A DNA stretch of 64,000 nt from positions 1,241,470-1,305,469 of the forward strand of contig OZ252237.1 of NCBI GenBank assembly GCA_965249525.1. Reading direction: 5' to 3'. The notes below the pieces were generated by a model. That model saw only the letters and a list, made by a program, of their open reading frames with translations. It was not told the DNA's origin and did no database searches. The translations under genes were made by a program, and so were the position numbers. The DNA is from a bacterium. Lineage in GTDB: Bacteria > SAR324 > JACQKK01. Shown in pieces: positions 60,530 to 64,000 of the stretch. Each line of letters begins with the position of its first letter. Position 1 is the stretch's first letter.

Positions 60530-61741
60530 TTAATTATCGCTAGCGATCACTGTGCTGCCTGAACCCACTGCCAGCAACTCGCCGTCAAGGGTTATGATGC
60601 CAGAAAGACCGCTTGTTATCCCTGATGCTTGTTCGGTCCAACTTTCGCCATTGTCATCGCTGGTGAGAACAAGACCGCTTATTCCCACCACCACCAAGCG
60701 GCTGTCAACGACTGTAACAGCATAAAGCGTACGGGCAAGAGGCCCTGCGTCTTGCAGGCTCCAACTTTCGCCATTGTCATCGCTGGTGATGACTGCACTG
60801 CCATGACCTACCGCCACCAAGCGGCTGCCGATGGTTGCGATATCATACAGAGTGCGGGTAGTCACTGCTTCTCTGGATGTCCAGCTTTCGCCATTGTCAT
60901 CACTGGTGAGGACGAGACCGTTTTCTCCCACTACCACCAAACGACTGCCAATGGTTTTTACAGCCATAAGATTTTCGCTGGTGGATGTTGTTCGGCTGGT
61001 CCAGCTAACACCATTGTCATCACTGGTGATCAAGACACCGCTGGTTCCCACCACCACCAAACGACTGCCAATAACCTCTACACCCTTAAAATTATCGGCC
61101 GTTATGGATGATGTTTGGCTGGTCCAGGTGACGCCATTGTCATCGCTGGTGAGTACTGTGCCAAAAACGCCCACTGCTATCAGGAGGCTGTCAGTAACCT
61201 TGAGCTTTTCAATACCATTGCTGGTGGATGTTGTTCGGCTGGTCCAGGTTTCGCCAGAGTCATCACTGGTGATCAATGTACCAGAGACTCCCACCGCCAC
61301 CAGGCTTTGACCGACGCTGACTACATCGTACAAAGTAATGGGTAGGCCACCGCTGGTAAACAGAGTCCCTGATGTTCGAACTGTCCAGCTGGTGCCTGGC
61401 AGAGAACTGTCAGTATCACTGCTGTCGCTGCTGTCAGAGTCGCTGTCAGAGTCGCTGTCAGAGTCGCTGTCAGAGTCGCTGTCAGAGTCGCTGTCAGAGT
61501 CGCTGTCAGAGTCACTGTCCGAGTCGCTGTCAGAATCGCTGTCCGAGTCGCTGTCAGAGTCACTGCTGTCATCGCTGTTGTCTGCCAGGTCCTGCGTTGC
61601 AAAGTCGTCTGAGGAACTGCCTTTTGCAGTGTTGCCATCGCCGCCGCTACAACCAGCCAAACCCATCATGGCTACAAGCAAAAACAGCCACCCGGCTTTG
61701 ATAAAGCCTGTGAATATTGTTCTAAAGTTTTTTACTATCAT
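60530..61741 (-). CDS. Lipoprotein with long Ser-Asp repeat stalk and BNR/Asp-box propeller
   Basis: LAGC lipobox, about 24 consecutive DS dipeptides, TSDDNG(E/V)(S/T)W repeats. Confidence 0.8.
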   Translation of the reverse strand: MIVKNFRTIFTGFIKAGWLFLLVAMMGLAGCSGGDGNTAKGSSSDDFATQDLADNSDDSSDSDSDSDSDSDSDSDSDSDSDSDSDSDSDSDSDSDSDSDSDSDSSDSSDTDSSLPGTSWTVRTSGTLFTSGGLPITLYDVVSVGQSLVAVGVSGTLITSDDSGETWTSRTTSTSNGIEKLKVTDSLLIAVGVFGTVLTSDDNGVTWTSQTSSITADNFKGVEVIGSRLVVVGTSGVLITSDDNGVSWTSRTTSTSENLMAVKTIGSRLVVVGENGLVLTSDDNGESWTSREAVTTRTLYDIATIGSRLVAVGHGSAVITSDDNGESWSLQDAGPLARTLYAVTVVDSRLVVVGISGLVLTSDDNGESWTEQASGITSGLSGIITLDGELLAVGSGSTVIASDN

Positions 61742-61999
61742 AATAATCAATCCTTTCCCCATTTTTCATCATGAGGATGTGTTAAAAACAGATGTTTCTG
61801 CCTGTCACCATGACAGTCAGTTCATCTCTTATTTCCATGATAGCCCCCGCTATTGCTGTCTTTAAGCAAACCCACTTTCTTTTCATACTTCTACAGAATT
61901 TCTTTAGATTCTCCACCAGGGACAACTGCTGCCGCCGCACAGCTGTTCTGGCAGCTGTTCTTAAGAGAACAACCCCGCTGGCTTTGACAGAATGTATGG

Positions 62000-63169
62000 C
62001 TAATAACGCGGCAGAGACGGGTTGATTTGCTCAGCCCAGGCATCAATACCGCCCTCTACGCTGACTGCGTCGGTGAAACCTTGCTGCTGCATCAACTGCA
62101 CAGCTTTTTCCGAGCGCTTGCCGTGATGGCAGTGTACAAACACTTTGCTGTCCTTGGGCAGTGAGTCCAAACCTGCTGGCAGGGTACTCAAGGGAAGCAG
62201 CTTGGCGCCTTCAATGTGTACAATTTCCCATTCGTGTGCTTCACGCACATCCAAGAGGGTAATATTGTGGTCATTGGCTATGGCTTGCTGCAATTCCCCC
62301 ACAGTGACCGTGGGTACACTCGGTTCACTTGGGGCATTGCCATTGCTGCTGGCGTTGACAAAGGCTTGGTAGTCTATCAGTTCAGTGACCTTGGGGTTGT
62401 CTCCGCACAGCAGGCAATTGTGGTTCTTGGTGATGCGTACGGTTTGAAACCGCATACGCAAAGCGTCAAACAGCAGCAGTCTGTCTTTCAATGATTCACC
62501 AATGCCCACAATCCATTTGACTGTCTCCGTTGCCATCAATAGTCCTATTACGCCCGGGAGCACGCCCAGCACACCAGCGGTGTCTCAGCTGGGGGCTAAA
62601 TCGGGGGGCGGCGGCGCAGCATACAAACAGCGATAGCAAGCCCCGCCATCGTGCGGATGAAACGCAGCAACCTGACCCTCAAAGCGGAAAATAGAACCCG
62701 ATATTAAAGGAATGCCAGCAAACCAAGCAGCATCGTTCACCAAGTAGCGCGTTTCAAAATTGTCTGATCCATCTACCACCAAGTCCCATTCGGCAAATAT
62801 TGGCTGCACATTTTCTGCTGTTAGTCGCTGCTTATAAAGCTTTACCTGCACATAGGGATTAAGTGCCTTGAGCCTCTGCCCAATGGACTCTGCCTTGGGT
62901 TGACCGATGCTGGCAGTATCGTGGGCAATTTGGCGGTTGAGGTTGGTTTCCTCCACCAAGTCATCATCCACTACACCGATGTGTCCCACTCCTGCAGCAG
63001 CCAAATAAATTCCCAACGGAGATCCCAAACCCCCCGCACCAATGCACAAAATCCTGGCAGCCTTTAGGCGACGTTGTCCAGGCAGGCCTACCTCAGGCAG
63101 GGTCAGGTGACGGTTATAGCGTTTAATTTCTTCTGCTGTAAGTTCTGCTTCAGGCATGGGGTCACGCAT
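62000..63169 (-). CDS. moeZ: MoeZ/MoeB-family adenylyltransferase-rhodanese fusion, probable selenoprotein (UGA at 62587-62585)
   Basis: Both track ORFs are in one frame: GAGGLG, CYRC, PS-[TGA]-DTAGVLGVLPG, CLLC, rhodanese CHHGKRS; 389 aa when read through. Confidence 0.85.
62549..62573 (-). promoter_or_regulatory. Candidate bacterial SECIS hairpin
   Basis: mRNA +12 to +36 after UGA: UGUGCU.GGG / CGUGCU loop / CCC(G)GGCGUA; G then U in the apical loop. Confidence 0.6.
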
Positions 63170-63178
63170 CCATCAAAA

Positions 63179-63279
63179 AAGGGGTCTTCCGCAAGAAAAT
63201 TTATCGGGTGCTGTCGGATAGGGGGAAATTGGGCAATAGGATCCCCAATGCAGCTCCCTTTCTCAACGGAAGACCCTTT
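63179..63279. ncRNA. ~100-nt multi-stem hairpin between moeZ and pdhA (unassigned)
   Basis: gggtcttccg/cggaagaccc, agaaa/tttct, gggtgctg/cagctccc, attggg/cccaat nested stems. Confidence 0.4.
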
Positions 63280-63474
63280 ACAATCTAAGATTTTTTTAAC
63301 TTAATCTACAAGCCCATAGCAATCAATTTTTCACCAAACTGTCACATGGTTGGTGCAAACTTGCCATATGCTGCAAAACTGAAGTACAATCCACCATACA
63401 TCAAAGCGACCAAGCAGCAGCAATAATTTCTTGGCAGCGGATTTTTTTGACACCCTTAGCAAGAGAAATTTTCT

Positions 63475-64000
63475 ATGCAGGAAGCAAAAAAGCGACATCT
63501 GCATGCAGTAGAAAAGCCCGCTGTATTCAGTATGAAAACCCTCACCGCCAGGCAGCAGGCGGTGGTGGAAGAACTGGGCAAAGAGCGTCTGGTAGAGATG
63601 TATCGGCTGATGTTTCTAATTCGCTCATTTGAACAACGGGCAGAACAAATGTACCAGCAGCGCAAAATTGGGGGGTTTTTGCATTTGTATATGGGTCAAG
63701 AGGCAGTCGGAGTGGGGATGCTTTCGGCTTTGCGACCAGATGACTATGTTGCCACTTCTTATCGCGACCATGGCATTTCACTGGCACAGGGCTTGAGTCC
63801 CAATGCCTGCATGGCAGAATTGTTTGGCAAGCAAAGCGGAGTTTGCGGCGGCAAAGGGGGTTCCATGCATTATTTCAGCAAAGAGAAGAACTTTTTTGGC
63901 GGGCACGGAATCGTGGGAGGACAAATTCCGGTTGGTTTGGGTGCAGGATTCGCTGCCTATTACAATCAAACCGATCAACTCAGCCTGGTGTTAATGGGTG
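63475..64000 (+). CDS. pdhA: Pyruvate dehydrogenase E1 alpha subunit, 5' part (runs off the window)
   Basis: Manual translation: IRSFEQRA..YQQRKIGGFLHLYMGQEAVG..YRDHG..GKGGSMH..GHGIVGGQIP. Confidence 0.92.
   Translation, partial: MQEAKKRHLHAVEKPAVFSMKTLTARQQAVVEELGKERLVEMYRLMFLIRSFEQRAEQMYQQRKIGGFLHLYMGQEAVGVGMLSALRPDDYVATSYRDHGISLAQGLSPNACMAELFGKQSGVCGGKGGSMHYFSKEKNFFGGHGIVGGQIPVGLGAGFAAYYNQTDQLSLVLMG

Follow-up and report, generated by a model that had tools for sequence, protein, structure and literature searches.

A very probable selenocysteine codon at the catalytic-cysteine position of a MoeZ-type gene in SAR324 bacteria

Introduction

Bacterial enzymes that join a ThiF domain to a rhodanese domain, such as MoeZ of Mycobacterium tuberculosis (Rv3206c, MoeBR), activate the carriers CysO and MoaD. 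In mechanism, the closest system that has been studied is Uba4, whose Cys225 forms a thioester with Urm1 that is essential if the rhodanese persulfide is to be reached (PMC6007339, PMC11662940).

Selenoproteins of the MoeB family have been catalogued since 2005, when the "Molybdopterin biosynthesis MoeB protein", with 11 sequences from the Sargasso Sea, was added to the list of selenoprotein families (Zhang, Fomenko & Gladyshev 2005, PMC1088965). Analysis of the GOS dataset in 2008 listed 19 MoeB selenoprotein sequences that were assigned to pfam05237 (PMC2398784), and the family also appears in the tables of reviews from 2022 and 2026 with MBT7809913.1 as the example (PMC9312934, PMC13188914). 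All four of these sources present the family as a computational prediction, and no MoeB selenoprotein is known to have been studied biochemically.

The gene described here comes from SAR324, an abundant ocean lineage. SAR324 has also been named as a lineage that uses selenocysteine (Sec) (PMC5029168). The gene lies in a stretch of 64,000 nucleotides of a SAR324 genome (the window), for which a first-pass annotation had proposed a probable selenoprotein, a Sec-containing sulfur-carrier activating enzyme that annotation pipelines would split at an in-frame TGA. To follow up this proposal we utilize a combination of profile searches, six-frame searches of related genomes, phylogeny and comparative RNA folding to describe the gene, its putative recoding hairpin and the genome in which it occurs. 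Modest additions to the catalogued family are the conservation of the Sec form throughout an order with one reversal, a near-invariant hairpin for which the cysteine (Cys) forms provide a control, the standing of the Sec enzyme as the sole E1 of a streamlined 1.7-Mb genome, and its C-terminal rhodanese architecture.

Results

One reading frame with a single internal TGA

Two ORFs on the minus strand, 63169..62585 (194 aa) and 62572..62000 (190 aa), share one frame, and the sole break between them is a TGA (62587..62585) in the context PPPDLAPS-TGA-DTAGVLGVLPG, just as the first-pass annotation had described. When read through, the frame has 390 codons with exactly one internal TGA and ends at a TAA at 62000, with the peptide around residue 195 becoming ...DLAPS-U-DTAGVLGVLPGVIGLLMATETVK (Table 1). 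A single Pfam ThiF match (E 1.6e-81) is continuous across the TGA. The remaining motifs, which had been called intact, are invariant in an alignment of 21 sequences; these include the nucleotide loop GAGGLG (GxGxxG; G44, G46, G47 and G49) and the CxxC pairs C178/C181 and C252/C255, as well as the rhodanese cysteine. The claim that the UGA falls on the conserved cysteine of E1-like enzymes also holds, as residue 195 aligns with three known cysteines, namely those in the loops of E. coli MoeB (1jw9, ...ALTCVEAGV...; C187) and E. coli ThiF (1zfn, ...RNCRTAGV...; C184) and the one that forms the thioester in Chaetomium Uba4 (6yub, ...QTSCGEAGI...).

The best NCBIfam model is MoeZ (NF005902), which scores 453.6 bits, below its equivalog cut-off of 647. 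The MoeB equivalog model (NF006444) scores 440.4 bits, just under its cut-off of 449, and the only NCBIfam model that is passed is that of the MoeB subfamily (NF004281, 288.8 bits versus a cut-off of 266). Because the equivalog cut-offs are missed, the gene is referred to here as MoeZ-type on the basis of its architecture and not as a MoeZ equivalog.

Table 1. Features of the moeZ-type locus, in window coordinates, and sulfur carriers encoded in the same genome
Feature	Position	Strand	Description
moeZ-type gene, complete	62000..63169	(-)	389 residues and a TAA stop, with one UGA read through
In-frame TGA, predicted Sec codon 195	62585..62587	(-)	Same column in 42/42 Sec-form loci; Cys in all Cys forms
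ThiF/E1 adenylation domain, residues 18-253, across the TGA	62411..63118	(-)	PF00899, 273 bits; alignments to 1jw9, 1zfn, 6yub
C-terminal rhodanese domain, residues 290-380	62030..62302	(-)	PF00581, 65 bits
Rhodanese active-site Cys347	62129-62131	(-)	Invariant in 21-sequence alignment
SECIS-type hairpin	62553..62570	(-)	5' arm 62570-62565, hexaloop CGUGCU 62564-62559, 3' arm 62558-62553
ThiS carrier			Ends GG; adjoins ThiG
MoaD-MoaE fusion			PF02597 carrier
CysO-like carrier			Ends GGH; adjoins CysM-like PLP (PALP) enzyme and class-V aminotransferase or desulfurase
MoaD-like carrier			Ends GG; adjoins aldehyde:ferredoxin oxidoreductase (AOR)-like gene

Two features that flank the gene were also observed. 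Immediately downstream, at 60530-61762 on the minus strand, there is an ORF for a 410-aa lipoprotein-like product with a long (SD)n repeat, which is followed by about eight repeats of the type LTSDDNGxSWTS that resemble BNR or Ycf48-like repeats. Upstream, the leader between the moeZ start and a divergent pdhA gene (window 63170-63290, minus strand) can form a long hairpin, GGGGUCUUCCGC...GCGGAAGACCCC, that encloses inner stems, has a folding energy of -39.5 kcal/mol (z = -3.2) and is followed by a run of six U residues 5 nt before the ATG. The leader hairpin together with the U6 run looks like an attenuator or terminator. An Rfam search of 61900-63600 matched no family, and no known riboswitch was recognised in the leader.

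Conservation of the TGA in related genomes

A six-frame search found a moeZ homologue in 54 of 61 related genomes, about 50 of which contain exactly one in-frame TGA, and the TGA forms are 43-68% identical to the window protein. A phylum-wide census of 88 genomes gave the same picture, with about 50 single-TGA genomes that represent about 20 genera. The TGA occupies the same column in every one of the 42 Sec-form loci that were extracted, including forms that are only 43-46% identical, and the Sec-form consensus reads ...PPPxxLxP[ST/N]-TGA-xxxGVLGVLPG. In the other orders of the class, the MoeB-like genes are all short, at about 270 aa, and lack both the rhodanese domain and a TGA at this site. 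At the TGA site the Cys forms of Gemmatimonadota, Chloroflexota, Actinomycetota, Acidobacteriota and other phyla have PSCAEGGVLGVLPG, so the UGA/Cys pairs that the first-pass annotation had suggested seeking in relatives do exist, with 42 Sec forms set against at least 68 Cys forms at an invariant Cys column.

A tblastn-type search with the alignment returned only Cys forms, all from other phyla, since the stop codon is penalised by tblastn. Among 5.8 billion predicted proteins there is no full-length Sec-form orthologue. The best full-length matches there are Cys forms whose identity does not exceed 56%, whereas the six-frame search recovers orthologues of 57-68% identity. Mis-annotation of this gene is therefore general, and the expectation that pipelines would split it is confirmed well beyond the window.

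The nearest full-length Cys-form homologues in the predicted-protein collection (P0004-P0120) are about 476 aa long, and in most of them the E1-rhodanese portion is preceded by a fused carrier domain of the ThiS family. The few of these nearest homologues that are named by NCBI belong to Gemmatimonadales, and the SAR324 Sec forms are unfused.

In a maximum-likelihood tree of 67 sequences, the outgroup Cys forms constitute a well-supported clade (100/99) and the remainder of the tree comprises the sequences of the order. Four Cys forms from within the order (G027, G031, G053 and G039) form one clade that is nested among the Sec forms (100/97), and a second copy in genome G026 groups with the outgroup Cys forms. 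The simplest reading of this topology would be that Cys was exchanged for Sec once, at the base of the order, that this change was reversed once, and that one Cys paralogue was acquired. The window sequence and that of its congener G001 (about 1.6 Mb) share a long branch, which is placed with weak support (81/81). At 0.66 this branch is very long for a housekeeping enzyme when compared with family relatives of 3-5 Mb, the two genomes that share it being reduced ones of about 1.6-1.7 Mb, and its length is in keeping with accelerated evolution of a lineage that is streamlined or host-associated.

Coding continues past the TGA

The codons that directly follow the TGA exhibit a codon-type pattern, GCN GGN GTN, in which positions 1 and 2 are invariant and the third is free. 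Furthermore, most relatives have GTC, which is not a start codon, where the window has GTG. In three unsaturated pairs, dN/dS values are 0.05, 0.07 and 0.30 after the TGA, close to the 0.05, 0.06 and 0.15 of the N-terminal part. The codon pattern, the missing start in relatives and the low dN/dS speak against a two-subunit arrangement as well as a pseudogene, and the range after the TGA (0.05-0.30) indicates purifying selection.

A two-subunit arrangement would treat the TGA as a true stop, such that a 194-aa adenylation half assembles with a rhodanese half that is re-initiated at the GTG at 62572. The window does offer that GTG five codons past the TGA, and purifying selection downstream would also be expected of a separate subunit. 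However, the ThiF fold would then be cut in the middle of its crossover loop. The stretch from the TGA to the first possible start also shows codon-type conservation, and most relatives have no start there. Two polypeptides would also leave unexplained why the interruption is always a TGA, always in the Cys column and always followed by a frozen hairpin, and why it is restricted to genomes of a Sec-using lineage. We consider this arrangement very unlikely and favor synthesis of one polypeptide through the UGA.

A hairpin conserved as nucleotides in Sec forms only

With the T of the TGA numbered as 1, the Sec forms share the sequence GUCCUGGGCGUGCUCCCRGG at positions 16-35. The RNAalifold consensus is a 6-bp stem (18-23 with 30-35) that is closed by the hexaloop CGUGCU, CCUGGG[CGUGCU]CCCRGG, with 98.4% of cells paired, and the hairpin lies within the coding sequence, with 14 nt between it and the UGA. 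A hairpin with this loop had been pointed out from the window alone, and its reality at columns 18-35 is supported both by RNAalifold and by a freeze of synonymous sites that is confined to the Sec forms. Specifically, the third positions +18, +21, +24, +27 and +30 carry 0-0.57 bit in 29 Sec forms versus 1.3-1.8 bit in 68 Cys forms. Third positions outside the hairpin (+12, +15 and +36 to +45) carry 1.4-1.95 bit in Sec forms versus 1.2-1.9 bit in Cys forms. VLGVLPG is the commonest peptide at the hairpin in both Sec and Cys forms, with some Cys forms having VLGILPG, and local G+C content spans 40 to 70% across the Sec-form loci.

All changes in the stem preserve pairing (U.G/U-A in 14/7 sequences, C-G to U.G, and one G-U), and there are no double compensatory changes in the Sec-form alignment. 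As the stem is nearly invariant, a shuffle control for covariation is uninformative, and given the lack of double changes the argument for the hairpin rests on the contrast between Sec and Cys forms at synonymous sites. The hairpin is scrambled in three of the four in-order Cys revertants and in the acquired second copy of G026, e.g. GUCUUGGGAGUCCUGCCUGG. Among relatives, both the UGA and the hairpin are thus kept, the latter as a conserved nucleotide sequence in UGA forms only.

The copy in the window departs slightly from the consensus in that position 18 is G and not C, so that the outermost pair is G.G and five of the six pairs form; an alternative register has the shifted pair G62570-C62552. 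When the 66 nt after the window's TGA are folded alone, the hairpin is not the minimum free energy structure and is no better than shuffles (z = 0.18). Support for the hairpin as a recoding element is, judging from these alignments, comparative and not thermodynamic. The features by which a SECIS was recognised in the 2005 MoeB family, a downstream stem-loop with a small apical loop containing G, are present here as well.

Selenocysteine machinery and usage of TGA

The genome is a single contig of 1,724,560 bp with 49.8% G+C and an estimated completeness of 89.7%. All of the Sec genes that the first-pass annotation had proposed to look for were found, namely a tRNA-SeC with anticodon tca at 427385-427483 (aragorn) together with selD (354.8 bits), selA (466.2 bits) and selB (322.9 bits), each of which scores over its curated cut-off. 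The selD gene (C1:1506995-1507918, minus strand) has its own in-frame TGA at 1507891-1507889 in the classical motif TCG-U-AGKLSP, which is followed 13 nt after the UGA by the hairpin AGCCC[GGUC]GGGUU. By its sequence, this hairpin is a second example of the SECIS type of this organism.

TGA is otherwise a normal stop, as had been stated from neighboring genes, and ends 263 of the 1047 ORFs that have at least 250 codons (25%). Genome-wide reassignment of TGA was considered and rejected, with TGA ending a quarter of long ORFs and moeZ containing one internal TGA. A crude genome scan for additional selenoprotein genes, in which ORF pairs joined by a TGA were scored for codon usage, yielded 29 candidates, most of which look like frame-sharing neighbor genes by sequence context alone. 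The scan recovered moeZ and missed selD, in which the Sec is too near the N-terminus to be detected in this manner.

The UGA could in principle be read as a residue other than Sec (e.g. Cys or Trp, by near-cognate decoding) with the hairpin acting as a general stimulator of read-through, and the identity of the inserted amino acid is indeed beyond sequence analysis alone. Against this stand the full selA/selB/selC/selD set and a second Sec gene, selD, whose hairpin, with a loop that contains GU, resembles that of moeZ in form and spacing. Moreover, a Sec/Cys pair at a nucleophilic Cys is the standard signature of a selenoprotein (PMC1088965), and the only other potentially relevant tRNA that aragorn detected is a single tRNA-Trp (cca), with no further UGA decoder. 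Insertion of a different amino acid is thus highly improbable, and decoding of the UGA as Sec is the reading that we retain.

A sole E1-like enzyme and four sulfur carriers

A ThiF-profile search of the genome, a single contig with a completeness estimate of 89.7%, revealed no second E1-like gene, while a ThiS-profile search identified four PF02597 carriers (Table 1). Since it is the sole ThiF-family E1, the Sec enzyme is most likely the common activator of all four. From the gene inventory, it probably serves the ThiS-ThiG system, MoaD-MoaE, the MoaD-like carrier with its AOR-like partner, and CysO-type cysteine synthesis. In the CysO-like cluster (C1:270019-274364) the carrier ends in AGGH, one residue past Gly-Gly, and the gene after the carrier encodes a 464-aa protein with a metallo-beta-lactamase fold and not a JAMM (Mec) protease.

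One base (TGA versus TGC or TGT) would be enough for a pseudogene or a sequencing or assembly error to give the observed pattern, but this is exceedingly improbable given a single TGA in about 50 independent assemblies from about 20 genera, dN/dS well below 1 on either side of it and the standing of the gene as the only E1 for four carrier systems in a streamlined genome, with the base call in the window supported by comparison with other genomes and an assembly error excluded in practice by recurrence of the TGA at this column in 42 of 42 loci read and in the census genomes.

Discussion

The combined evidence makes it very probable that this moeZ gene is a genuine selenoprotein gene in which UGA-195 specifies Sec at the catalytic-cysteine position. 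The proposal of a Sec-containing sulfur-carrier activating enzyme, originally made from the window alone, is now backed by the Sec genes of the genome, by UGA/Cys pairs in relatives and by conservation of the hairpin. The product would be one polypeptide of the MoeZ/MoeBR type that adenylates sulfur-carrier proteins and passes sulfur to them, with UGA-195 presumably decoded by SelB and tRNA-Sec under direction of the hairpin within the gene.

A plausible reaction sequence would begin with adenylation of the Gly-Gly C-terminus of carriers of the ThiS/MoaD/CysO type. The selenolate of Sec195, located on a flexible crossover loop, would then attack the acyl-adenylate to give an acyl-selenoester that is subsequently handed to the persulfide on rhodanese Cys347, from which the carrier would be freed as a thiocarboxylate. 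The selenoester on Sec195 is proposed by analogy with the Uba4 thioester, and we infer Sec insertion, the selenoester chemistry and the choice of carrier substrates from sequence comparisons. Cys187 of E. coli MoeB, the equivalent of Sec195, is reportedly dispensable. A catalytic role of the loop position would therefore not be universal in the MoeB family. That the sole E1-like enzyme of SAR324-type bacteria works via an obligatory acyl-selenoester on Sec195, as a selenium analogue of the Uba4 thioester, is a tentative suggestion, which may or may not prove right.

If the selenoester is indeed obligatory, then synthesis of thiamin, of molybdo/tungstopterin and of cysteine by the CysO-type route would hang on selenium in a whole abundant order of the ocean. 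Retention of a costly Sec throughout the order, with a single known reversal, would then also constitute natural evidence for a catalytic loop residue in bacterial MoeZ-type enzymes. Independent of the chemistry, there is a consequence for annotation as the gene is intact and yet is given as two fragments by pipelines, both here and in about 50 related genomes. An essential enzyme consequently seems absent from metabolic reconstructions of SAR324-type bacteria.

Comparison with known systems

The best matches among solved structures are E. coli MoeB (1jw9) and ThiF (1zfn, 1zud), with E values of 6.6e-53 and 1.4e-48, respectively. Unlike the window enzyme, these proteins have no rhodanese domain, serve one carrier each and have Cys at the equivalent of position 195.

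The closest described selenoproteins are those of the 2005 MoeB family, with which the window gene shares membership in the ThiF/MoeB family, a UGA that is paired with Cys, a SECIS-type hairpin just downstream and an origin from uncultivated marine organisms. This comparison is one of descriptions, as the papers state in their text neither at which residue the Sec lies nor what the domain architecture or the taxon is. Assignment of the GOS sequences to pfam05237 (the MoeZ_MoeB region) is consistent with the same Sec position, though not proof of it. To this catalogued family the window gene adds a member that is still mis-annotated.

M. tuberculosis MoeZ has the same arrangement of an E1 followed by a rhodanese domain, along with the GxGxxG loop, the two CxxC pairs and the rhodanese Cys, and differs in that the window enzyme has Sec in place of the loop Cys. 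Their genomic settings are also alike in that the window genome has a CysO-like carrier beside a CysM-like enzyme as well as MoaD-type carriers, but they differ in that no JAMM (Mec) gene is found beside the CysO-like gene.

Uba4/MOCS3 (6yub, 6yuc, 6z6s) likewise combines an E1 with a C-terminal rhodanese domain, and Sec195 falls on the very Cys that forms the Urm1 thioester. Uba4 differs from the window enzyme in having Cys at this position, in being eukaryotic and in serving Urm1 and tRNA thiolation. On the strength of this analogy, Uba4 is the best mechanistic model for the window enzyme.
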